Shown piece by piece: positions 1-8,178 of a DNA stretch of 8,178 bases (positions are counted from its first letter, which is position 1; each line of letters starts with the position of its first letter). The DNA is from Candidatus Auribacterota bacterium (GTDB lineage Bacteria > Auribacterota > UBA6266): assembly GCA_023136205.1 (NCBI GenBank), contig JAGLRQ010000154.1, positions 1 to 8,178 on the forward strand, written 5' to 3'. The position numbers were made by a program, and so were the translations under genes. The notes under the pieces were generated by a model, which worked only from the letters and a program-made list of their open reading frames with translations, was not told where the DNA came from and did no database searches.

Positions 1-20
1 GCTCATAAAAACACCTGCCT

Positions 21-818
21 CTATCTTTTAAAACTCTCTTTAGCTCTTCTTCTGATTTTTGTTAAAGAATCCCTTGAGAAACGCGGGTTTTTTCTTCTGC
101 CATTTTTTAAATAGCTGCTTTTCACCAAACGCAGGTACCCTTTTATAACCTGTAACAAAGAGGGGAAAGAAACTGCCTTGGATGTTTGATTCGCTCTTAA
201 ACCGAGCCTATAGGGAACCTCCGCGAAAAGATAACCTTTTTTTACAACTCTTATTAAAATATCCGTCTGGAAGAAAAACCCTCCTTCTCTATGATTCAAA
301 TCCTTTAAAATCGATTTTCGATAAAGAATCGTACCATTCGTATAATTTAGATTAACTAAAAATGTTGTATTAATTATAAAACGGTAAACAAAGGAGAGCG
401 CGTTTCGAAATAATGACCTTACCTCTTTATTAAAAACAAAAGGCACAACAATATCTACATGTTTAAGAAGTTCGTGATACCGAAAAATCTCCCATGGATC
501 ATTTTCATTGTCTCCGGGAAGCATAATAACTACATCACCGGAAGCATTGTCAACTCCTTCCCAGAAGGATGCTCCTATACCACAGGGCACATCATGCTGA
601 ATCATATTAACAGGTTTCCCCTCTTCGATTACCCCATCAACCAATTCTCCTGTTCTATCCATACTTCCATCGTTAACAACAATAATTTCACCTGTCATAC
701 TAAAATATTCAAAAGCTTTTAACACATTATCAACGGCGGGTAAAATATTTGCCTCTTCATTAAGAGCCGGCATAATAACACTGATTTCGGGTTTATTCCA
801 GAATCTCATTTTTTTCAT
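21..818 (-). CDS. Family-2 glycosyltransferase (DPM1 / polyprenyl-phosphate glycosyltransferase-like), 265 aa
   Basis: The N-terminus 'ISVIMPALNEEANILPAV...GEIIVVNDGSMDRTGELV' is the classic GT-A/GT2 nucleotide-sugar binding signature. An acidic 'PGDNENDP' segment sits where the DxD-type motif is expected. A GGAG Shine-Dalgarno lies about 8 nt upstream of the ATG at 818. The gene starts 21 nt downstream of the preceding gene. Confidence 0.85.
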   Translation of the reverse strand: MKKMRFWNKPEISVIMPALNEEANILPAVDNVLKAFEYFSMTGEIIVVNDGSMDRTGELVDGVIEEGKPVNMIQHDVPCGIGASFWEGVDNASGDVVIMLPGDNENDPWEIFRYHELLKHVDIVVPFVFNKEVRSLFRNALSFVYRFIINTTFLVNLNYTNGTILYRKSILKDLNHREGGFFFQTDILIRVVKKGYLFAEVPYRLGLRANQTSKAVSFPSLLQVIKGYLRLVKSSYLKNGRRKNPRFSRDSLTKIRRRAKESFKR

Positions 819-839
819 ACAATACTCTCCGCGCCCCGA

Positions 840-1331
840 TTAAACACGCATGTACCCCGCTCCGGCATCCTTAATCCATTCATCAACTAATACGTTAAAA
901 GGTTTTTCATTAGAATAGGGGTTATAAACTTTCAAGTTTATTAATTTCATAATACTTATATCATCACTCCCGCAACAATGTGAAAGCCCAAGAAATTCAA
1001 AATAATTGTTAACTCCGTTTCCAATAAATTTCACATTGAGGTTTTGCAAAACAACATCATTTCTGATTTGTTCAAGCGCCCTGAAAACCAGAAAATTTAC
1101 TATTGAGTACACTATAGGTATTAAACCGCTCATACTCATCCCGGCAGCAATCCCCACCGTCCCTTGCTCCATAATACCGCAGTTGATTACCCTCTCAGGG
1201 AATTCATCTTTCATATTGTCAACAGCACCAAAGCCCATATCACATATTAAAAGGCGGTACCGTTCATCCTTACGAAAATATGGGATGATATAATTTAAGA
1301 TGTCTTTTCTAAAATTAGCTGTATCAGTCAT
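840..1331 (-). CDS. Transketolase-like subunit B, pyrimidine-binding (Pyr) domain only, 163 aa (truncated relative to usual split-transketolase C-terminal subunits)
   Basis: 'EFPERVINCGIMEQGTVGIAAGMSMSGLIPIVYSIVNFLVFRALEQIRNDVVLQNLNVKFIG' matches the transketolase/DXS Pyr-domain core (FP.R..n.GIaEQ..vg.AaG.a..G..P...t...F..Ra.eQIRn). It ends at '..GYMRV', where the usual 'vYiRl' ends the Pyr domain. Its ATG overlaps the upstream subunit's stop by 8 nt (1324-1331). Confidence 0.75.
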   Translation of the reverse strand: MTDTANFRKDILNYIIPYFRKDERYRLLICDMGFGAVDNMKDEFPERVINCGIMEQGTVGIAAGMSMSGLIPIVYSIVNFLVFRALEQIRNDVVLQNLNVKFIGNGVNNYFEFLGLSHCCGSDDISIMKLINLKVYNPYSNEKPFNVLVDEWIKDAGAGYMRV

Positions 1332-2130
1332 AGGTTTTTCCCATAGTTAATTCTTCTTTCGTTGGAACGCGAAAGTGAAATTTCGGCACATTCTCCATGC
1401 ATTTCAAACCAAACCCCTTCACTGTCGCGGCAACAATTACTTTCGGTTTGTTTTCCAGTGAAGATTTTGCCGCATGGATAGAATGGGTAAGTTTAATAAC
1501 ATCATGCCCCGGACATACAACAGGCGACAGGCCGAACCCGCGCAATTTCTTAATCAGGCCGTCTTTTTCTTTATCTAGAATATTTATAACAAAATCCATT
1601 GCCTGAAGACGGTTGTAATCAACAATAATGGTAAGATTTTTCACCTCATGTTTAACCGCAAACTGCAGTGCTTCCCATGTTGTTCCTTCCTGTAGCTCTC
1701 CATCTCCAACAATACAAAATGTATGGTAGTCTTTTCCTCGCGTTCGCGCTCCAAAAGCAAGGCCGACGGCAATCGGCAAACCGTGTCCAAGGGAACCGCA
1801 CCCTCCCTCAAGCCCGTATTCAACTTTTCGTTCCACGCATCCCGGCAGAATACTTCTTTCTGTATAAAAATCTTCCCACTCTTTCTTAGGGAAAATCCCC
1901 TTATCAGCCAGAATCGCGTAAAGAGCGTAACAGCCGTGCGCTTTTGAAAAAATTAATCTATCTCTCTCTTCCCATAAAGGATTTTCAGGTTCATATGTCA
2001 TAGCGTTATAATATAAAGCAACAAGTATATCAACACACGACAACGAAGGAGCAATGTGTCCGGCACCACGGCGGACAGCAACCCTTATGACTTCATCCCT
2101 GATATAATTCGCTTTTTTTAGTAAATCCAT
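1324..2130 (-). CDS. Transketolase subunit A, thiamine-diphosphate (PP) binding domain, 268 aa
   Basis: 'GAGHIAPSLSCVDILVALYY', 'SKAHGCYALYAILA' and 'GSLGHGLPIAVGLA' are transketolase-type motifs. The ThDP motif 'GDGELQEGTTWEA...IIVDYN' (GDG-x(n)-N) is present. The length is typical of the N-terminal half of split transketolases. Confidence 0.85.
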   Translation of the reverse strand: MDLLKKANYIRDEVIRVAVRRGAGHIAPSLSCVDILVALYYNAMTYEPENPLWEERDRLIFSKAHGCYALYAILADKGIFPKKEWEDFYTERSILPGCVERKVEYGLEGGCGSLGHGLPIAVGLAFGARTRGKDYHTFCIVGDGELQEGTTWEALQFAVKHEVKNLTIIVDYNRLQAMDFVINILDKEKDGLIKKLRGFGLSPVVCPGHDVIKLTHSIHAAKSSLENKPKVIVAATVKGFGLKCMENVPKFHFRVPTKEELTMGKTYD

Positions 2131-2177
2131 TTTAAAAGCCGTATGAGGACTATAGTCTGCGTCCTATCCTATTTTTT

Positions 2178-3245
2178 TTAAATAAAATTTACATGTTCGG
2201 GAGTATTTTTCAGGCTCCAAAGATACCTGTTTACTTCATCCATCCGGCAATTCACCCTGCACCGGGAAGCATCCAATTCCTCTTCTACCCAACGGAGCGA
2301 CTTTAATCGTTTTTCCCCCTCCCATATTTGCCGGAAAGATTGTTCATATATATTTCCATATAAAAACCGCTCATCACTCAGATAAACACTGCATCCCCAG
2401 ACATTGCCGCCGGCATCAATGTAGGACCAGAAGGGCAGCGCGAGGCAACGGTTATAATTCCGTTTCCCCTCGTCCCACTTCTTCATAGTATGTACCCTGA
2501 ATACAACATTAAACTCGTTTGTATTGAAATTTTCCAGTTCGCCGGCAAGATGTTCATAATCATTGTATTTAACAGAACTATATTTAGTTGTTTTGCTTTG
2601 AGGATGCTGCGAATACGGTTTTATAACCAGATAATCCATGCCAATGTCCCGGGCAAGTTTTGCCAGAGGCACTGCTTCGTGACAATTTTCCGGCAATAAT
2701 AAGAGCTGCATACCTAAAGTGCAGGAATAATTATTTTCTTTCCTCGTTTTTACTGCATAGGACATGTTTTCAATCACACGATTAAAATCAGCGGCATCAC
2801 AGCGATGAATTTTCGCGTAAGTATCACATGCCGCTCCATTAATACTTACTTTAAGCCACTCGATACTGCCAAGAATTCTATCTGCAATTTCTCCTTTAAA
2901 TAAGACACCGTTGGTTGTCACTGCCGCATCAATACCAGACTCTTTCGTATAATTAACTATTTCCGCCATATCACAATGTAAAAACGGCTCGCCTTCACCA
3001 GCATACATAATACTTTTGAGCCCAAGTTTTCCCAGCTCCGAAAGCCTTTCTTTAAACAAACCGGTATCAAGACACCTCGGCTCATAATCCATAAAATCCA
3101 GTCCGCAATATAAACACCGGTGATTGCAGGCGCCTGCCGGGCTAACCTCCATGTATATAGGATAGATTATTTTACCCTCCGACCACTCGCTTACCCGTGA
3201 AGGATGGTAAATGAGCTTATGGCTGTCTATTGAGTATTTGTCCAT
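2178..3245 (-). CDS. Radical SAM enzyme with a SPASM/twitch-like C-terminal auxiliary-cluster domain, 355 aa
   Basis: The CxxxCxxC motif 'CNHRCLYCG' (C40/C44/C47, nt 3105-3128) is followed by a 'YAGEGEPFL' (GGEP-like) SAM-binding motif. The C-terminus 'CLALPFWSYIDAGGNVWGC...YGNIYEQSFRQIWEG...CRVNC' fits the C-x(n)-G-x4-C ... C-x3-C pattern of SPASM/twitch domains (nt about 2247-2447). There is no N-terminal cobalamin-binding domain. An AGGA Shine-Dalgarno lies upstream of the ATG at 3245. Confidence 0.85.
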   Translation of the reverse strand: MDKYSIDSHKLIYHPSRVSEWSEGKIIYPIYMEVSPAGACNHRCLYCGLDFMDYEPRCLDTGLFKERLSELGKLGLKSIMYAGEGEPFLHCDMAEIVNYTKESGIDAAVTTNGVLFKGEIADRILGSIEWLKVSINGAACDTYAKIHRCDAADFNRVIENMSYAVKTRKENNYSCTLGMQLLLLPENCHEAVPLAKLARDIGMDYLVIKPYSQHPQSKTTKYSSVKYNDYEHLAGELENFNTNEFNVVFRVHTMKKWDEGKRNYNRCLALPFWSYIDAGGNVWGCSVYLSDERFLYGNIYEQSFRQIWEGEKRLKSLRWVEEELDASRCRVNCRMDEVNRYLWSLKNTPEHVNFI

Positions 3246-3816
3246 TCTTTATTCCTATAACCATATCAACAAAACAGTGGCAAATGGAAAGGTGAACTGC
3301 TTCTACATAACCGTATTCCGATGCCGGTACATAAAAATTAATATCCCCTAAACTGCTCAGAGAATTATTTTTCTTAAATCCTGAAAGGGTTATCACTTTA
3401 ACATTCTTTTTTTTCGCCGCGAGTACTCCGGATAAAATATTATCGGATTGGCCCGAACTACTGATGGCAATTAAAATATCGCCCCTGTCGGCAAACATAT
3501 CAATCGGTTTTTCAAATACATGTTTATATCCATAATCGTTGCTAATACAGGTTAAGAGAGTGCTGTCATTAAAAGTAAGCGCCCGTATGCCCGCGTTTTT
3601 CCAGAAATCGGCCGCTATATGGCTGGAGATAGAAGCACTCGCGCCATTGCCAATTAAAAAAAGTTTTTTGCCCGAAGCTGCCTGATCAATAATCATACGT
3701 ATTGACATATCCATAGCTTCATCAAACTGATATACTTCACCATTCGCGCCGACAGCACTAATCTTGCTGAACAAACTTTTCAGGGTTAAAAAATATTCTT
3801 TTACAACTTGCCTCAT
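3217..3816 (-). CDS. SIS-domain sugar-phosphate isomerase, GmhA (sedoheptulose-7-phosphate isomerase)-like, 199 aa
   Basis: It aligns by eye along its whole length with E. coli GmhA: 'KKLFLIGNGASASISSHIAADF' vs '[22 protein letters not shown]'; 'ISNDYGYKHVFEKPIDMFADRGDILIAISSSGQSDNIL..AAKKKNVKVITLSG' vs '[52 protein letters not shown]'. Its ATG overlaps the upstream stop as ATGA (3813-3816). Confidence 0.8.
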   Translation of the reverse strand: MRQVVKEYFLTLKSLFSKISAVGANGEVYQFDEAMDMSIRMIIDQAASGKKLFLIGNGASASISSHIAADFWKNAGIRALTFNDSTLLTCISNDYGYKHVFEKPIDMFADRGDILIAISSSGQSDNILSGVLAAKKKNVKVITLSGFKKNNSLSSLGDINFYVPASEYGYVEAVHLSICHCFVDMVIGIKNGQILNRQP

Positions 3817-5348
3817 TTTAACAGCCTCGTAATATATTTAATCAAGTCCACAAATTTGACAGGTTCTCTGTTGCAGACTATCTGAACAGCCAGCGAACCC
3901 ACCGCGTTTCCGACAAAAGAAACTAAATCCTGAGGCAAACCCGCGGAAAAACACGGCGCGACAAAAGCAAAAAAAGCGTCTCCCGCTCCAATCGCGTCTA
4001 CAACACGGTACGCGAAAGCCGGCGTTTCATGATACCCGGCTGTTTCACAATAACTCAAAGAACCGTGCGGCCCGCGGGTAGCAATCACTTGCTGACATTT
4101 AAGGTCATGATACACTTTCCTGGCAAGCGTCCGCAGGTCGCTAAATTTATCATGCGTAGCAAAACGCAGTTCCATTTCATCAACACAAACACAATTCACG
4201 CGCGGATATTTAGTCACAAGATTAAATCCGATATTCGCGCTATTCGTCTGCACGTTCAAAGCAAGATATTTTGCCTTAGCGCAAATAAGGTCAATAATCC
4301 GCTTTGTCAGCAGGCCGTGTCCAAAATCCGAAACAACAACCAGATCGTAATTCTCAATTGTTTTTTCAATCTGTTTTAATATCCTTGTTTCAATACGCCC
4401 GAAAATACTATCATCTTTCATATAACAAATCTCAAACAGTTTTCTGTTTGAATCTTTATTAACAAATCTTCTTTTTATAATGGTTCCAACATCGGGCCTA
4501 TAGAAAAAAACAGGAGTAATGTTAGGACTTAACCGGCTTTTAATAAAATCATTTAAAGAATCTTCATCTTCCTTGCCCAGCATAGTCAATAAATCAACCT
4601 GTTTACAAAGGTTGGCTATGTTGTTAGCTGTCGCCAGAGTGCCGCCTGCGAACGTTTCCTCAGAATCATATCTATTAGCGACCAAATGCTCTTTTGAAGA
4701 TTTCCCCATCGGTGTACAGTAATGGTACTGGTCAATAATAGCATCCCCGATCACCAGCACTTTCAGATCTTTAAGCAAACACAGTTTTTCAGTTATAAAA
4801 TCTATGGAATATTTCTTACCAATCGCTTTTAGATATTTAACAGTTCTTGGCGGATAAACATCCAGATATTTATTGAGTAATTTTGAAGAACTGAAGGTAA
4901 TATCATCGGTAAATACCAGCCGTCCGCCAACAGTCTTCACGGCTTCCTCTTCTTCTGAAATTTTACCGGTTATATCCCCTTCTTTTTTTCTGTATTCACT
5001 GCCCTTCACATAGAAATCCGGTTTCAAAATCCCCAGGCATTCAATAGCAGTCGGCGAATCAATAATACTCACATAATCTGTAACAGCAAGAGACGCAAGC
5101 GCTTCTGCCCGCAGATGCTCATTGAAAACCGGCCGTCCCGGCCCCCTCTTAACATGTTTATCCTTTGTAATTGTAACAATAAGAATATCACCGTGCTTTT
5201 TAGCTAACTTGAAATGGCGGATATGCCCCAGGTGCAAAAGATCAAATACACCATGGCAATGAACTATTTTTTTGCCCTTAGTCTTAAGTTTCGAGCACAC
5301 CCCTCCTAACTTTTCTACTTTAACAATTTTCCTATGGATATCTTCCAT
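3813..5348 (-). CDS. Bifunctional sugar-phosphate nucleotidyltransferase (cytidylyltransferase fold, HldE domain II-like, N-terminal) + PfkB-family sugar kinase (HldE domain I-like, C-terminal), about 511 aa
   Basis: The N-terminal half 'HGVFDLLHLGHIRHF...GDILIVTITKDKHVKRGPGRPV...YVKGSEY' matches the HxGH nucleotidyltransferase of HldE/RfaE domain II. The C-terminal half 'VLVIGDAIIDQYHYC', 'GGTLATANNIANL' and 'DAIGAGDAF' (nt 3972-3989) match the PfkB ribokinase-like kinase. The ORF track starts at a GTG at 5426. I prefer the ATG at 5348 (M27, 'MEDIHRK'), which has an AAGGA Shine-Dalgarno (5356-5360) 7 nt upstream and a promoter-like element inside the 5349-5426 extension. Confidence 0.85.
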   Translation of the reverse strand: MEDIHRKIVKVEKLGGVCSKLKTKGKKIVHCHGVFDLLHLGHIRHFKLAKKHGDILIVTITKDKHVKRGPGRPVFNEHLRAEALASLAVTDYVSIIDSPTAIECLGILKPDFYVKGSEYRKKEGDITGKISEEEEAVKTVGGRLVFTDDITFSSSKLLNKYLDVYPPRTVKYLKAIGKKYSIDFITEKLCLLKDLKVLVIGDAIIDQYHYCTPMGKSSKEHLVANRYDSEETFAGGTLATANNIANLCKQVDLLTMLGKEDEDSLNDFIKSRLSPNITPVFFYRPDVGTIIKRRFVNKDSNRKLFEICYMKDDSIFGRIETRILKQIEKTIENYDLVVVSDFGHGLLTKRIIDLICAKAKYLALNVQTNSANIGFNLVTKYPRVNCVCVDEMELRFATHDKFSDLRTLARKVYHDLKCQQVIATRGPHGSLSYCETAGYHETPAFAYRVVDAIGAGDAFFAFVAPCFSAGLPQDLVSFVGNAVGSLAVQIVCNREPVKFVDLIKYITRLLK

Positions 5349-5396
5349 TTTTAGTTCCTTTACGGGCCGTTGGCAATGTAGAACATTTAAAACAAA

Positions 5397-5425
5397 ATAA
5401 TAGCTAAATTGTTCATAATTGTCCA
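5397..5425 (-). promoter_or_regulatory. Putative sigma-70-type promoter for the minus-strand sugar operon: TGGACA (-35) - 17 nt - TATTAT (-10)
   Basis: Read on the minus strand, the sequence is TGGACAattatgaacaatttagcTATTAT (plus coordinates: -35 at 5420-5425, -10 at 5397-5402). Each hexamer is one mismatch from consensus and the spacer is the optimal 17 nt. The element lies about 45 nt upstream of the preferred ATG at 5348. The host sigma-factor specificity is unknown. Confidence 0.4.
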
Positions 5426-5506
5426 CAAAATGAAAGAATAAAAACCATGGGATTGCGGATCACAATTTGAAGAGGAGCAGTAACCTGCACAAGATCAAAA
5501 AAACAC

Positions 5507-5535
5507 TTGCGCATTTCTCATAATCCCATTATAGA
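5507..5535 (+). promoter_or_regulatory. Possible promoter for the SGNH gene: TTGCGC (-35) - 17 nt - TATAGA (-10), ending 6 nt before the ATG
   Basis: The sequence is TTGCGCatttctcataatcccatTATAGA, followed by tatagcATG. No Shine-Dalgarno is visible upstream of the ATG at 5542, and an in-frame TAA at 5521 excludes any upstream start. The geometry would give a leaderless or nearly leaderless transcript. The hexamer matches are weak. Confidence 0.25.
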
Positions 5536-5541
5536 TATAGC

Positions 5542-6690
5542 ATGACACCTTTTAAAAGAAATGTAAGCTCTCCCTTTTTCAACGCGTTAGTTCGCTTCGG
5601 CTTGTTGTGCCTTTCATTATGCGTTTCAATTGTCCTGATGGAAACAATACTACGCGTGTTTTACCCACAGCAACTGACATTCCGAAGAGAAAACAAATAC
5701 ACTGTAAGCCAATGCCTTGAAAACTGGAAAGGGGTTGTTAGATCGAATGAATATAATACCAAACTTGAATTTAACAACCGGGGGTTAAGAGGAGAGCTTG
5801 TTCCCTATCAGAGGCAAATGCCTTCTCTGCGGGTGTTTTTTTCAGGTGATTCTTTTGTAGAAGCCGCGCAGGTTGAGTTGAATAACCACTTCAGCAGGCT
5901 CACAAAGGAAATTCTGACTCAAAAGAACAACAAAAAAACAGAAACTGTTACCTGCGGCGTGGGAGGATGGGACAATGTACAACAGTTAATTTACCTGAAA
6001 AACGAGGCATATAAATACAGCCCTGATTATTTTCTTTTATTTGTATATCCCGGGAATGATATTAATGGAAATTATGGAAGATACTACAAGGAAAACCTTA
6101 AACAGTATATTAATAGAAGGGATCTTAATCTTCTCTACAGATCCACGCGGAAAGAGAATCTGTTTCTACGGCTTAAAGAATATTTGCTTTCTCACTCGCA
6201 CATTTTTACTCTTTTTAAAATTTCTCTGGAAAAAACAAAAACAAAAAGCTCTTTTGAGAAAATACAGCGGGCACTTAAGATGATAAACATCCCTGAAAAG
6301 TCTTCCAAAAATGTAACCATGGATACACAAACAACAATAGAGAAATCGTGGGAATTATTTGAATTTTTAATGAAAGATTTTTCCCTGTTCTGTGAAGAAC
6401 AGAATATTAATTTCGCGGTGGCAGTCATCCCTCATATTAATCAGATTTACTTTGATCGTTACCCCGAACAGTATAAAAAGATAGCGCGAAACCGCTGGGG
6501 CAAACCCGATGGATATTCAAAAACAATCGGCATTTTAAAACAGAATAATATTAATGTAATCGATCTATATCCCGGGTTACTAAAAAATAAAGAGCACAAT
6601 GTATATTTTCATGGAGACATGCACTGGACCCCCGAGGGACATCGTGTTGTCGCGGGCATAATAGCAGAGTATTTGCTTTCTGATATATAA
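5542..6690 (+). CDS. Membrane-anchored SGNH/GDSL-type hydrolase or polysaccharide O-acyltransferase/esterase (AlgX/AlgJ/DHHW-like C-terminal motif), 382 aa
   Basis: There is an N-terminal hydrophobic anchor 'FFNALVRFGLLCLSLCVSIVLMETIL'. SGNH blocks are present in canonical order: 'FFSGDSFVEA' (GDS, nt 5845-5853), 'CGVGGWD', 'YPGNDING' (GxND) and 'HGDMHWTPEGHRVVA' (D-x-H-W, nt 6616-6627). It is the only plus-strand gene in the window. Confidence 0.7.
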   Translation: MTPFKRNVSSPFFNALVRFGLLCLSLCVSIVLMETILRVFYPQQLTFRRENKYTVSQCLENWKGVVRSNEYNTKLEFNNRGLRGELVPYQRQMPSLRVFFSGDSFVEAAQVELNNHFSRLTKEILTQKNNKKTETVTCGVGGWDNVQQLIYLKNEAYKYSPDYFLLFVYPGNDINGNYGRYYKENLKQYINRRDLNLLYRSTRKENLFLRLKEYLLSHSHIFTLFKISLEKTKTKSSFEKIQRALKMINIPEKSSKNVTMDTQTTIEKSWELFEFLMKDFSLFCEEQNINFAVAVIPHINQIYFDRYPEQYKKIARNRWGKPDGYSKTIGILKQNNINVIDLYPGLLKNKEHNVYFHGDMHWTPEGHRVVAGIIAEYLLSDI

Positions 6691-6705
6691 AAATAATTTG
6701 TTTTT

Positions 6706-7713
6706 TTATTTTTCCAAATACTTAAACCAGTCTTTTGTAGCTTCCTCAATTTCCTTTGGTGTCCACACAGGAGCATCCTTCCAGCAGTCGATGTTATCCA
6801 GTAAAATTTTTACCCCTTCCTCAAAACTTACGTTCGGCTTCCAGTTTAATACCTTTTGTATTTTGGATATGTCAGCAAAAGTGCATTCCGGTTCGCCGGG
6901 CCGCTTTGGAATATAGGCCACTTCTCCTTTTAAAAGTTTTACAAGGGTATTTACGCTATAAGTGTCACCGCTGCCCACATTAAAAATTTCACCGGACACA
7001 CCCGACATAGCCGCGTTTATAAAAGCCTCAACTACATCAGTCACAAAGGTAAAATCACGCCTTTGGGTACCGTCACCCACAACGGTAAAAGGTTTACCAG
7101 CTAACTTTTGAGCTAAAAACACACCGAAAACCGCCCCATATGTGCCCGATGTCCGCGACCTGGGCCCGTAAACATTAAATAAACGCAAGGAAACAACCGG
7201 AAGCTTATAGATCTTTCCCCAGTGCAAAGCAATCTGCTCACCCAGATGCTTAGTAAGAGCATAGGGATATTCCGGACGAATTTCAGCATTTTCAGCAGTG
7301 GGACAGCAGTCAGGAATACCATAACAGGAAGAAGAAGCCGTATAGAGAAATTTTTTCAGGTTCGGCGACATTTCACGCGCGGCTTCTAAAACACTTATGG
7401 TTCCATCAACATTTGCCCTGTGATAAGACAAGGGATTGACAATCGATGGAACAATATCAGCCAGTGCCGCCATATGAAAAACATAAGATACACCCTTGAA
7501 ATATTTCTTTATACCGGCAATATCATTAACATCCGCTTCCACTAACTCAAAATTTTTATTTTCCTTAAAAGAAGCCAGGTTTTCTATTCTGCCGGTGGAC
7601 AAATTATCTATAGCTACAACATAACAACCGTTTTTCAATAAAGTTTCCGCCAAATGACTGCCGATAAATCCGGCGCCGCCGGTTACTATACACTTAACTA
7701 AATTAGTCTTCAT
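6706..7713 (-). CDS. NAD-dependent nucleotide-sugar epimerase (extended SDR, GalE/WbpP-like rather than 4,6-dehydratase-like), 335 aa
   Basis: It has the Rossmann motif 'VTGGAGFIGSHL', the catalytic 'ASSSCYG' Ser region without the Asp-Glu pair of 4,6-dehydratases, the YxxxK motif 'YALTK', and 'LFNVYGPR' and 'GDGTQRRDFTFVTDVV'. The ORF track's TTG start at 7842 adds 43 non-homologous residues. The ATG at 7713 ('MKTNLVKCIVTGGAG') has GGAGG 9 nt upstream and overlaps the upstream gene's end by 11 nt. Confidence 0.85.
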   Translation of the reverse strand: MKTNLVKCIVTGGAGFIGSHLAETLLKNGCYVVAIDNLSTGRIENLASFKENKNFELVEADVNDIAGIKKYFKGVSYVFHMAALADIVPSIVNPLSYHRANVDGTISVLEAAREMSPNLKKFLYTASSSCYGIPDCCPTAENAEIRPEYPYALTKHLGEQIALHWGKIYKLPVVSLRLFNVYGPRSRTSGTYGAVFGVFLAQKLAGKPFTVVGDGTQRRDFTFVTDVVEAFINAAMSGVSGEIFNVGSGDTYSVNTLVKLLKGEVAYIPKRPGEPECTFADISKIQKVLNWKPNVSFEEGVKILLDNIDCWKDAPVWTPKEIEEATKDWFKYLEK

Positions 7714-8178
7714 CCTTGCCCGCCTCCGCATGTTTTGTATTCCAGGCCAACCGGGGCCGCACAACACCAATCCAGGTGCCAAAAAACTCCTTACGCATCT
7801 CACCTGAATCATAAACGTGAAATGACACCGCGTAATCTTCAAGGACCTGGGTGTCAGATACCCCCCTGCCTACAATAGCTGTAACACTATACAATCCTTC
7901 ATTTAGAAAATTGCCGGGAATACGGCAAACAGACTGAAAAAGGCCCGCAGGATAAGAACGTCCGCTCCAGGGATCAGCCGTCAAGGAAATTGATTTGTGA
8001 TTGGTTGACGCGAGCACAAACGTACCTGTCTGATCCCTTAACCAAATCGCGGGGTAAAGCAACGCTCCTTCCTGTAAATTCCAATAGCTGATCTGAATAA
8101 GTATTTCTTTTGAAATATCTACATCTGCCACAGGGCCCTCAATATCCTCCTGTAGAATACGAACCGCGTGTAAACGGA
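7703..8178 (-). CDS. 3' end of a polysaccharide ABC-transporter ATP-binding protein (Wzt/TagH-like); only the C-terminal beta-sandwich, Wzt_C-type domain is in the window (partial CDS)
   Basis: The reading frame stays open from the listed GTG (8131) up to the window edge ('RLHAVRILQEDIEGP' upstream). The pattern 'V.I......G......I...E.L.I.I.Y.......L...I.....G..V..T.......L.......G.....C.IP...L..G.Y.V...V........VLED....F.V' resembles the C-terminal carbohydrate-binding domain of O-antigen ABC-transporter ATPases. The nucleotide-binding domain would lie beyond position 8178. Confidence 0.6.
   Translation of the reverse strand, partial: RLHAVRILQEDIEGPVADVDISKEILIQISYWNLQEGALLYPAIWLRDQTGTFVLASTNHKSISLTADPWSGRSYPAGLFQSVCRIPGNFLNEGLYSVTAIVGRGVSDTQVLEDYAVSFHVYDSGEMRKEFFGTWIGVVRPRLAWNTKHAEAGKDED

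Follow-up and report, generated by a model that had tools for sequence, protein, structure and literature searches.

What sugar is made by an operon that joins genes for heptose activation to a radical S-adenosylmethionine (SAM) enzyme and a split transketolase? The question is raised by a stretch of 8,178 nucleotides from a Candidatus Auribacterota bacterium (assembly GCA_023136205.1, contig JAGLRQ010000154.1, positions 1 to 8,178), which was analysed as a whole and is called the window below. It contains six co-directional genes in the order nucleotidyltransferase-kinase (NT-kinase), SIS isomerase, radical SAM enzyme (rSAM1), two subunits of a transketolase-like (TK-like), thiamine diphosphate (ThDP)-dependent enzyme, and family 2 glycosyltransferase (GT2). 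The answer proposed here, which we hold with about even confidence, is that the window represents the core of a widespread, uncharacterised nucleotide-sugar pathway comprising heptose supply, tailoring by radical and ThDP chemistry, and transfer. Direct observation covers which genes are present, how far their order is conserved, which domains are fused and which active-site residues are replaced, and from this we infer the substrates, the order of steps and the product. The six genes are the following.

3813-5348, minus strand: NT-kinase gene (nucleotidyltransferase plus PfkB kinase), ATG at 5348, 511 aa according to gene callers
3217-3816, minus strand: gene for a GmhA-like SIS isomerase, 199 aa (Pfam SIS_2/SIS)
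2178-3245, minus strand: radical SAM gene rSAM1, 355 aa (Pfam PF04055 and PF13186)
1324-2130, minus strand: ThDP/diphosphate-binding (N) subunit of the split transketolase-like enzyme, 268 aa (Pfam Transketolase_N, 101 bits)
840-1331, minus strand: Pyr-only subunit of the split transketolase-like enzyme, 163 aa (Pfam Transket_pyr, PF02779, alone)
21-818, minus strand: GT2 glycosyltransferase gene, 265 aa (Pfam PF00535)

The listing of open reading frames (ORFs) and the minus-strand sequence agree exactly with the genes, overlaps and spacing reported in the original prediction, an earlier reading of this DNA that had proposed a five-gene module at 840-5348. The NT-kinase and SIS genes share an ATGA stop/start overlap at 3813-3816, the SIS and rSAM1 genes overlap by 29 nt (3217-3245) and the two TK-like subunit genes by 8 nt (ATGACTGA at 1324-1331), and a gap of 21 nt separates the Pyr subunit from GT2. 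No terminator-like sites were found in the short gaps between the module genes. Pfam and NCBIfam profile searches reproduced the domain calls for the five proteins and GT2.

The rSAM1 family was searched across one genome per GTDB species. At least 449 species matched, and the neighbourhoods of the best 80 were analysed by calling ORFs, scoring them against the window proteins and clustering them; 68 of these loci were informative downstream (at least 3 kb of sequence) and 60 upstream (at least 4 kb). In these best 80 of at least 449 species, rSAM1 is 57-73% identical to the window protein; for the whole set of species, which come from more than ten phyla and among whose bacteria anaerobes prevail, the range is put at 57-75%. 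The bacterial carriers among the best 80 belong to Omnitrophota, Planctomycetota (anammox genera included), Nitrospirota, Desulfobacterota/Thermodesulfobacteriota, Elusimicrobiota, Hydrogenedentota, Fibrobacter and Lentisphaeria, and the archaeal carriers to Methanoperedens, Nanoarchaeia and Hydrothermarchaeota. A two-subunit ThDP enzyme is encoded on the same strand no more than 6 kb downstream of rSAM1 in 58 of the 68 loci. Upstream, 40 of 60 loci have an NT-kinase gene, usually with a SIS gene after it, and about half of the loci continue downstream with GT2, rSAM2 (a second radical SAM/SPASM gene, paralogous to rSAM1) and/or a B12-radical SAM gene. As this order recurs in dozens of unrelated genomes, the adjacency of the module genes is far beyond chance, and the accidental adjacency that the original prediction had allowed for does not account for it. 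The family as a whole comprises 5365 homologues of rSAM1 at E<=1e-10 and 476 clusters at 50% identity with E<=1e-30. Among the best 120 homologues listed, nearly all have 355 aa and are 67-97% identical, and those named come from Omnitrophota, Planctomycetota, Elusimicrobiota and Scalindua.

The same comparison showed that the proposed module boundaries were too narrow, because two further genes are conserved in the cassette, one for an extended short-chain dehydrogenase/reductase (SDR) at 6706-7713 and the other rSAM2, located just outside the window on the side of position 1. The source contig, as contained in the metagenome-assembled genome GCA_030639325.1 (also a 291-kb ENA scaffold), shows the operon running on past the window into rSAM2. 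SDR orthologues (430-520 bits) lie immediately upstream of the NT-kinase gene in 17 loci, and many loci encode a 320-aa protein of the NCBIfam 'GSU2086 family' next to the NT-kinase and SIS genes or between them. The two almost exclude each other in the region preceding the NT-kinase gene, where 17 loci have the SDR only, 14 GSU2086 only, one has both and eight have neither. The SDR and the GSU2086-family protein may be functional analogues, for example epimerases or oxidoreductases of nucleoside diphosphate (NDP)-heptose. The GSU2086-family protein is Rossmann-like with weak similarity to ArgZ-C and deoxyhypusine synthase, and loci of this type usually carry an extra stand-alone HldC-like nucleotidyltransferase gene. 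Variants from Desulfobacterota and anammox bacteria consist of rSAM1, a ThDP enzyme and a GT2 or GT9-like gene, and NT-kinase and SIS genes are absent within 10 kb.

Are the first two genes of the heptose-activation kind, as originally predicted? In the NT-kinase, Pfam places PF01467 at residues 58-151 and PF00294 at residues 222-515, and NCBIfam alignments place the nucleotidyltransferase at residues 26-170 and the kinase at 218-517. Positions 314-453 of the HldE profile, its C-terminal part, align with residues 26-170, so that the swapped domain order relative to HldE, which the earlier reading had recognised, is borne out. The protein scores 160.5 against a cutoff of 521 with NF008454 (HldE) and 114 against 345 with TIGR02198 (rfaE domain I); the best model for its nucleotidyltransferase is TIGR02199 (rfaE domain II), at 101 bits with a cutoff of 181.5. 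Its nearest solved structures are a lipopolysaccharide (LPS)-core nucleotidyltransferase (3glv) and, for the kinase part, the heptose-7-P kinase HldA (4e84). The kinase GAGD motif is present in 'AIGAGDAFF' and the nucleotidyltransferase HxGH motif in 'HGVFDLLHLGH'. These features point to a predicted dual role as heptose-7-P 1-kinase and heptose-1-P nucleotidyltransferase. The SIS protein finds phosphoheptose isomerases as its best PDB matches and scores 100.3 against 209.45 with TIGR00441 (gmhA) and 96.5 against 276 with NF010546. All 36 members compared retain the equivalents of E. coli GmhA H61 and H180 and the Ser-rich phosphate loop (SSSGQS; E. coli S119-S124); in all 36, E65 is replaced by Asp and Q172 by Glu, and R69 and D169 are absent. 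H61, E65, Q172 and H180 are the residues that we take to be catalytic and metal-binding in the E. coli enzyme. Judged by sequence, the changes are chemically conservative and mark a distinct GmhA-like subfamily.

The genomic context agrees with this assignment. In Methanoperedens and two other archaeal loci, genes for a transaldolase and a HAD protein precede the cassette, and the HAD protein of Methanoperedens passes the GmhB equivalog cutoff (199 vs 178). One nucleotidyltransferase domain fused to rSAM1 passes the cutoff for HldE domain II, as described below. In Geobacter sulfurreducens, GSU2086 lies between hldE (GSU2085) and gmhA (GSU2087), and transposon insertions in all three genes cause fitness defects (PMC5585712); that heptose occurs in the Geobacter LPS core is cited in PMC13252051. 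The one tie between the window NT-kinase and GSU2085 is their shared GSU2086-family neighbour. In loci that lack the NT-kinase, a GT9-like (heptosyltransferase-like) gene often flanks rSAM1. The heptose-supply reading is well supported, and the exact sugar is not proven. As the original prediction had remarked, no HAD/GmhB gene is present in the window, and domain searches and the gene listing of 21 kb of the source contig revealed none either. A HAD_2-type phosphatase gene directly follows rSAM1 in three other loci (L011, 7315-8013, overlapping rSAM1; L006, 11076-11726; L072, 11077-11739) and may substitute for the missing GmhB there.

rSAM1 is the most conserved and constrained protein of the cassette and its anchor. 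Its start at 3245 is backed by the homologues, which all have 355 aa with conserved residues from position 2 onward. Besides the CX3CX2C motif (C40/C44/C47), four further Cys are invariant (C267, C285, C329 and C333); this number would fit one auxiliary Fe-S cluster rather than two. The best NCBIfam scores are far from their cutoffs (TIGR04426, DesII, 36.7 vs 450; TIGR04466, BlsE, 31.9 vs 400), and the nearest solved relatives by sequence are BlsE, DesII, MoaA and viperin, enzymes whose substrates are without exception nucleotides or sugars linked to them. An AlphaFold (AF2) model of rSAM1 (predicted local distance difference test, pLDDT, 83; predicted TM-score, pTM, 0.86) was compared with the PDB by Foldseek, and DesII ranked first (E 1.6e-16, TMq 0.63, 16% identity), followed by SuiB, SkfB, anSME, BlsE and viperin. 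This ranking is suggestive only. DesII is a radical enzyme acting on a thymidine diphosphate sugar, and DesII, BtrN and AprD4 convert a sugar CH-OH or diol into a ketone. Together with the conservation of rSAM1, the DesII match supports the earlier proposal that the radical SAM enzyme tailors a sugar. A peptide-maturase reading of this SPASM enzyme was rejected, because no small ORF or carrier gene is conserved nearby and the fusions of rSAM1 are to sugar-activation domains.

These fusions connect the radical step with sugar activation. Cytidylyltransferase-rSAM1 fusions occur in three separate 50%-identity clusters (P0142, P0155 and P0158), and the nucleotidyltransferase domain of P0142 is the one that passes the cutoff for HldE domain II, the heptose-1-P adenylyltransferase (182 vs 181.5). 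P0126 is a natural fusion of a GmhA-like SIS domain to rSAM1, and P0171 is a single polypeptide of 951 aa in which a ThDP enzyme of the acetolactate synthase (ALS) type is fused to rSAM1. The predicted role of rSAM1 is a radical oxidation or dehydration of NDP-heptose. Other rSAM1 homologues have different additions: P0160 is fused to a class I methyltransferase, and in P0174 (631 aa) an intein (Intein_splicing plus HNH_3, residues 90-323) interrupts the protein just before the radical SAM core. The locus that encodes P0142 (L088, GCA_004196255.1, SDBU01001091.1, 5947-12667) contains GT2, the fusion gene, two further radical SAM genes, a TK_N gene and a 165-aa Pyr-only subunit gene; kinase and isomerase are absent. 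The contig is crowded with tiny ORFs, has a transposase, a MazE-like gene and a faint match to LAGLIDADG, and may belong to a mobile element or a small-genome archaeon. The two ends of rSAM1 deserve mention as well. Residues 1-30 (invariant D7, K10, H14 and W21) are among the most conserved parts of the protein, and so are residues 335-355 (..NRYLW.LKNPPEHVNFI; invariant H351, N353 and F354). Despite this conservation, the pLDDT of both tails in the AlphaFold model is 28-59; the tails may serve to dock a partner or to close the active site as a lid.

The position downstream of rSAM1 is filled by ThDP enzymes of four architectures. The short type found in the window, TK_N plus a Pyr-only subunit of ~165 aa, occurs in 16 loci, a long split type (TK_N plus a full Pyr/TK_C subunit) in 13, and an E1 alpha/E1 beta pair (PF00676; Transket_pyr plus Transketolase_C) in 22. 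Four otherwise 'empty' loci encode an ALS-type enzyme (TPP_enzyme_N/M/C) within ~1-2 kb, which brings the loci with a ThDP enzyme to about 60 of 68. What these four architectures have in common is decarboxylation and acyl-anion carboligation, not ketol transfer between sugar phosphates. The window enzyme itself is of transketolase descent. The best PDB match of its N subunit is 6yak, the N-terminal chain of the split transketolase of Carboxydothermus (1.6e-52, 181 bits). With the transketolase model NF004559, however, the N subunit reaches 204.8 and the Pyr subunit 38.6 against a cutoff of 488, and the best NCBIfam match of the Pyr subunit is DXS, at 43.6 bits.

Residues were numbered by alignment to E. 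coli TktA. All 19 short-type members retain the cofactor residues, namely the equivalents of E411 (the Glu that activates the cofactor) and H473 together with the GDG...N motif, and likewise the equivalents of H26, H66 and H261. H100 is replaced by Cys in 19/19 short-type members and is His in 11 of 12 long-type members, and the S385 equivalent in the short-type Pyr subunit is hydrophobic (Val in 17/19, Ile or Leu in the rest). The Pyr subunit has no His at H461 and no Asp at D469, where indels at 461-469 make the assignment less certain than for H100 and S385; the genuine split transketolase 6yaj keeps 'THaG..GeDGaSHQ' in this region. The Pyr subunit of the window is also truncated and lacks the whole transketolase C-terminal domain (TK_C). 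In yeast and E. coli transketolase, His100 contacts the C1-hydroxyl of the donor; Ser385 and His461 bind phosphate, and Asp469 contacts the C2-OH of the acceptor. As its cofactor residues are intact, the window enzyme is likely to be active, yet it does not appear to be a standard phosphosugar transketolase. The loss of H100, S385, H461, D469 and the C-terminal domain suggests that it probably does not supply sedoheptulose-7-P but works as a carboligase on a carbonyl derived from NDP-heptose, comparable to sugar branching of the YerE type.

For the last gene, GT2, the best PDB matches are dolichol-phosphate mannose synthase (DPMS; 5mlz, 2e-11), ArnC (9e-10) and GtrB. It has no hydrophobic or transmembrane segment over its 265 aa and scores 43.6 against a cutoff of 529 with the ArnC model NF007986. 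A function as a glycosyltransferase of the polyprenyl-phosphate type is predicted. In 31 of 64 loci the ThDP genes have a GT2 orthologue (240-375 bits) downstream, and rSAM2 often comes directly after it; the inclusion of GT2 in the module, which the original prediction had implied, holds for about half of the loci. The nearest solved structures to the SDR are the uridine diphosphate-hexose 4-epimerases WbgU, WbpP and GalE.

From these predicted functions a pathway can be proposed. The SIS protein would isomerise sedoheptulose-7-P and the kinase would phosphorylate C1. A phosphatase encoded elsewhere in the genome would remove the 7-phosphate, and the nucleotidyltransferase domain would form NDP-D-glycero-D-manno-heptose. 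rSAM1 is tied to NDP-heptose by its fusions to nucleotidyltransferase and SIS domains, the archaeal GmhB and transaldolase genes, the GSU2086 link and the GT9-like flanking genes; it might abstract a hydrogen from this substrate and leave a carbonyl (keto, deoxy-keto or aldehyde), like DesII, AprD4 or BtrN. A ketone from a step of this kind is the type of acceptor used by the ThDP branching enzymes YerE and ErwE and by E1 pairs. The two-subunit TK-like enzyme would then add a ThDP-bound acyl anion, most simply a C2 unit from pyruvate, to the carbonyl made by rSAM1, which would yield a sugar with nine carbons or more, either acyl-branched or extended in its chain. The SDR, rSAM2 and locus-specific enzymes could then alter it by additional redox reactions or epimerisations. 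The DPMS/ArnC-like GT2 would finally move the product onto polyprenyl phosphate or a glycan, which could be exported via the neighbouring Wzm/Wzt ABC transporter.

The cassette is also found on plasmids and phages. Plasmid pDCAR1 of the sulfate reducer Solidesulfovibrio carbinolicus DSM 3852 encodes NT-kinase, GSU2086-family protein, SIS and rSAM1 (56% identical; genes C3Y92_RS20620-20635), and the window NT-kinase is 42% identical over its full length to the plasmid-encoded 'PfkB family carbohydrate kinase'. The split transketolase (RS20665/RS20670) is located in a divergent operon, and the cassette adjoins pseudaminic-acid genes. This neighbourhood (L085, 10994-19500 and 5622-7390) is a pseudaminic-acid island (pseB/pseC/pseF, NeuB-like) with ATP-grasp, methyltransferase and sialate O-acetylesterase genes. 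Such a context hints at glycosylation of flagellin or surface proteins rather than O-antigen. An independent lineage is found on an alphaproteobacterial plasmid, that of Azospirillum oryzae, with the gene order SDR, NT-kinase, SIS, SDR, E1 alpha, E1 beta, two DegT genes, a hypothetical gene, rSAM2 and NUDIX. In IMG/VR, ten viral contigs carry rSAM1 (40-54% identity); rSAM2 is present on nine of the ten and a ThDP enzyme, be it short TK, E1-like or ALS type, also on nine. Kinase and isomerase are often missing from these phage versions, which retain rSAM1, the ThDP enzyme and rSAM2. Two of the contigs were inspected and contain phage tail, neck, RecT-like and ParB-like genes; they are genuine phages. 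Among GenBank phages, radical SAM matches are only 23-26% identical, so that the family was not found in the isolated phages there. One phage contig (L090, 3-16996; IMG/VR UViG_3300027861_000044) encodes a GT9-like protein, a pectate-lyase-like (beta-helix) protein of 2077 aa, a small radical SAM protein, rSAM1, a short split TK and rSAM2, after which come neck and major-tail genes. The pairing of GT9-like and beta-helix proteins resembles heptosyltransferases with beta-helix substrates such as AAH/AIDA-I, and by this analogy suggests glycosylation of the virion or tail fibre with a modified sugar. A PDB sequence search with the GT9-like protein gave weak GT9 matches only (3tov and 1psw) and no TibC, and the link to the autotransporter heptosyltransferases TibC/AAH is a lead only.

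A bolder reading of this distribution is that rSAM1, rSAM2 and an interchangeable ThDP enzyme constitute an unrecognised system for C-C bond formation, which would convert NDP-heptose to a sugar of at least nine carbons, has spread horizontally, tailed phages included, across anaerobic phyla and archaea, and in some phages may decorate virion proteins. We regard this as a tentative proposal that is somewhat more likely to fail than to hold. In its strongest form, the radical and ThDP steps would be mechanistically coupled, with a substrate radical meeting a ThDP enamine, instead of being sequential.

Several observations weigh against the proposed pathway. The scores of NT-kinase and SIS fall well short of the equivalog cutoffs for HldE and GmhA, and Asp takes the place of the catalytic Glu in SIS, so the sugar may not be a canonical heptose. 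The Foldseek TM-score of rSAM1 to DesII (0.63) barely exceeds those to the peptide maturases SuiB and anSME, so that the comparison of structures establishes no more than a radical SAM fold of the SPASM/twitch type. The Pyr subunit retains the equivalents of R358 and R520, which bind phosphate in true transketolase, and the transaldolase in the archaeal loci shows that supply genes can be recruited into the cassette. The ALS-rSAM1 fusion was found on one 4.4-kb contig only, and the 80 loci analysed, being those closest to the query, are a biased sample.

Some of these observations favour the role that the original prediction had given to the split transketolase, namely to make the ketose-phosphate precursor (sedoheptulose-7-P or a longer ketose), which SIS and NT-kinase would activate and the radical SAM enzyme would tailor later. 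A genuine split transketolase (6yak) is a clear homologue of the subunits, they have kept H26, H66, H261, E411, H473, R358 and R520, and archaeal cassettes have recruited transaldolase and GmhB, both supply enzymes. However, in about half of the loci the slot is occupied by the E1 alpha/beta or ALS type, once even fused to rSAM1, and these enzymes cannot make sedoheptulose-7-P. In the window type, moreover, an invariant Cys replaces H100, S385, H461, D469 and the entire TK_C are missing, and phages keep the ThDP enzyme with rSAM1 and rSAM2, often in cassettes without kinase and isomerase. The supply role was rejected because of the slot displacement, the residue losses and the ALS-rSAM1 fusion, and the scheme built on it appears quite unlikely. 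A salvage route has even less to recommend it: 5'-deoxyadenosine, the by-product of radical SAM enzymes, would be converted to 5-deoxyribose and by transketolase to 7-deoxysedoheptulose, which would be isomerised and activated with no need for GmhB. Transketolase-dependent formation of 7-deoxysedoheptulose from 5-deoxyribose is known (PMC8102628), and this route would match the lack of GmhB in the window and of the phosphate-binding S385 and H461 in the TK. Yet E1 and ALS-type replacements cannot transfer ketol units, the phosphate-binding Ser loop is present in 36/36 SIS members, GmhB occurs in archaeal cassettes, and rSAM1, the most constrained protein of the set, is hardly an incidental source of a by-product. 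We therefore find it barely credible.

Alternatively, the heptose genes could be merely co-located, and the radical SAM and ThDP enzymes might build a separate substituent derived from an acyloin or keto acid, or modify a heptose that a glycan, lipid or protein already carries. This is rather unlikely, although NT-kinase and SIS are missing within 10 kb in the variants from Desulfobacterota and anammox bacteria, anSME and SuiB, which modify proteins, are likewise matched by the SPASM-type fold, and one phage cassette adjoins the 2077-aa beta-helix protein and tail genes. Since rSAM1 is fused to heptose-1-P nucleotidyltransferase domains in three 50% clusters and elsewhere to a GmhA-like domain, channelling from the activating enzymes to the radical enzyme is implied, and no precursor peptide or carrier-protein gene is conserved nearby. 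The locus might also simply supply ordinary ADP-heptose for LPS or an S-layer glycan, with radical SAM, TK and GT2 as unrelated neighbours. Glycan loci are mosaics, that of the window has many other tailoring genes, and hldE-GSU2086-gmhA is a housekeeping operon in Geobacter. Nevertheless, the order of rSAM1 and ThDP genes across phyla, archaea and phages, the translational overlaps and the fusions contradict this explanation and make it very improbable. The pathway proposed above, with rSAM1 and the ThDP enzyme acting on an NDP-heptose, remains our preferred reading.

The other features of the window and its surroundings place the cassette in a larger glycan locus.

6706-7713, minus strand: extended-SDR NDP-sugar epimerase/dehydratase gene, 335 aa (Pfam GDP_Man_Dehyd/Epimerase)
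5542-6690, plus strand: AlgX/SGNH-type gene (gene callers start at 5638), predicted to encode an O-acetyl-transferase or esterase for polysaccharides, hydrophobic segment at the N-terminus
7703-8131, minus strand, running off the window end: C-terminal part of the gene for a 440-aa ABC-transporter ATPase, no Pfam match
5556-5528 and 5425-5397, minus strand: two promoter-like hexamer pairs from a consensus scan, 10/12 matches each, weak evidence

The hexamer pairs sit in a divergent intergenic region of 193 nt located 5' of the NT-kinase gene and mark a possible operon start. An Rfam scan of the window matched no RNA family. The AlgX/SGNH-type gene parts the SDR gene from the NT-kinase gene here; since the two are directly adjacent in about 17 other genomes, it looks like a local insertion that splits the cassette. 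The stop of the ATPase gene overlaps the SDR start by 11 nt, and the ATPase extends ~190 aa beyond its ATPase domain, in what may be a glycan-cap-binding domain as in some Wzt proteins. Genes of a Wzm/Wzt-type ABC transporter lie upstream in the source contig, with a Wzm-like ABC2 permease gene upstream of the ATPase gene (locus L001). On the other side, rSAM2 is followed by genes for an RmlD-like SDR, an acetyltransferase, a DegT aminotransferase, a GT2, a methyltransferase and a B12-radical SAM enzyme.

Hardly any work has been done on the surface glycans of Omnitrophota, anammox Planctomycetota, Nitrospirota, Desulfobacterota, Elusimicrobiota and Methanoperedens, and a cassette shared by these groups at about 60-75% identity, and by their phages, points to a common, so far undescribed sugar. 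For enzymology, the cassette offers a new radical SAM subfamily for which a likely substrate, NDP-heptose, can be named, a lineage of transketolases that has apparently taken on the work of a carboligase and is marked by His100 to Cys and a truncated Pyr subunit, and a natural case of four ThDP architectures serving one job. The innate immune receptor ALPK1 of vertebrates has ADP-, CDP- and UDP-heptose as agonists, so modified NDP-heptoses could matter in immune recognition. The hypothesis is directly testable in cultured carriers, which are S. carbinolicus DSM 3852 with pDCAR1 and, for the rSAM2/E1 variant, Azospirillum oryzae KACC 14407.

How does the cassette compare with known systems? It seems to belong to no named pathway, because no window protein passes a curated threshold and the TK fails several defining features. 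The scores of rSAM1, NT-kinase, SIS, the TK subunits and GT2 are all far from the cutoffs of the NCBIfam models, and a literature search on heptose, radical SAM, ThDP, branched-sugar, phage and Geobacter LPS topics found no paper describing the gene set. A characterised locus with the same genes, which the original prediction had named as evidence that would speak against it, was not found either, and its central idea, that the genes encode a so far undescribed way to make a modified heptose or one with more carbons, is in outline supported. By analogy, the cassette can be regarded as a union of the ADP-heptose pathway, a radical step of the DesII/AprD4 type and ThDP-dependent branching of the YerE type. 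With the NDP-heptose pathway (GmhA, HldE/HldA) it shares a SIS protein with the phosphate loop and a metal site that is probably conserved, a PfkB kinase nearest to HldA/HldE domain I, and a cytidylyltransferase-fold nucleotidyltransferase nearest to HldE domain II. It differs in the order of nucleotidyltransferase before kinase, which is outside the three HENase architectures listed in PMC11573728. The window nucleotidyltransferase also lacks the (F/L)XXGRSTT motif and has DDITFSSS in its place, no GmhB is encoded in the window locus, and the cassette genes invariably lie among radical SAM and ThDP genes. Like DesII, AprD4, BtrN, BlsE, viperin and MoaA, rSAM1 has a CX3CX2C core and one auxiliary Cys cluster (twitch/SPASM-like) and is set in a nucleotide-sugar operon. 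However, its identity to any of them is at most 18%, it reaches no NCBIfam subfamily, and it has its own conserved N-terminal 30 residues, a C-terminal EHVNFI tail and rSAM2 and a ThDP enzyme as partners. GT2 resembles DPMS, ArnC and GtrB in its GT-A catalytic domain with DGS..D and DxD-like motifs, but has no transmembrane helices, is only 265 aa long and stays far below equivalog cutoffs.

The split transketolase of Carboxydothermus hydrogenoformans (6yak/6yaj) has the same two-gene architecture as the window enzyme, whose N subunit aligns with it over the full length; the second subunit of the window is in contrast cut to the Pyr domain, and H100, S385, H461 and D469 are replaced. The closest functional parallel is likely to be sugar branching. 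The ThDP enzymes YerE and ErwE add acyl branches to NDP-keto-sugars (PMC9306805), and E1-type (alpha/beta) ThDP pairs are encoded in the paulomycin cluster (PMC4753412). In these systems (YerE, ErwE and MyGE of the ALS family, and the paulomycin E1 pairs), as in the cassette, a ThDP enzyme is encoded inside a nucleotide-sugar operon near genes for keto-sugar formation and reductases, and cassette relatives carry ALS- or E1-type enzymes at the very same position. Similar E1 alpha/beta pairs occur in the avilamycin and aldgamycin clusters. The window enzyme itself is of the TK/DXS lineage, unlike its ALS and E1 positional counterparts in other genomes, and a truncated split TK with His100 replaced by Cys is not reported for sugar branching in the literature searched. 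The analogy extends to the chemistry with two differences: YerE and ErwE act on a 3,6-dideoxyhexose, whereas the substrate of the cassette would be a heptose, and the carbonyl used in YerE-type branching is provided by a dehydratase with E1/E3, whereas in the cassette it is probably formed by the radical SAM enzyme.

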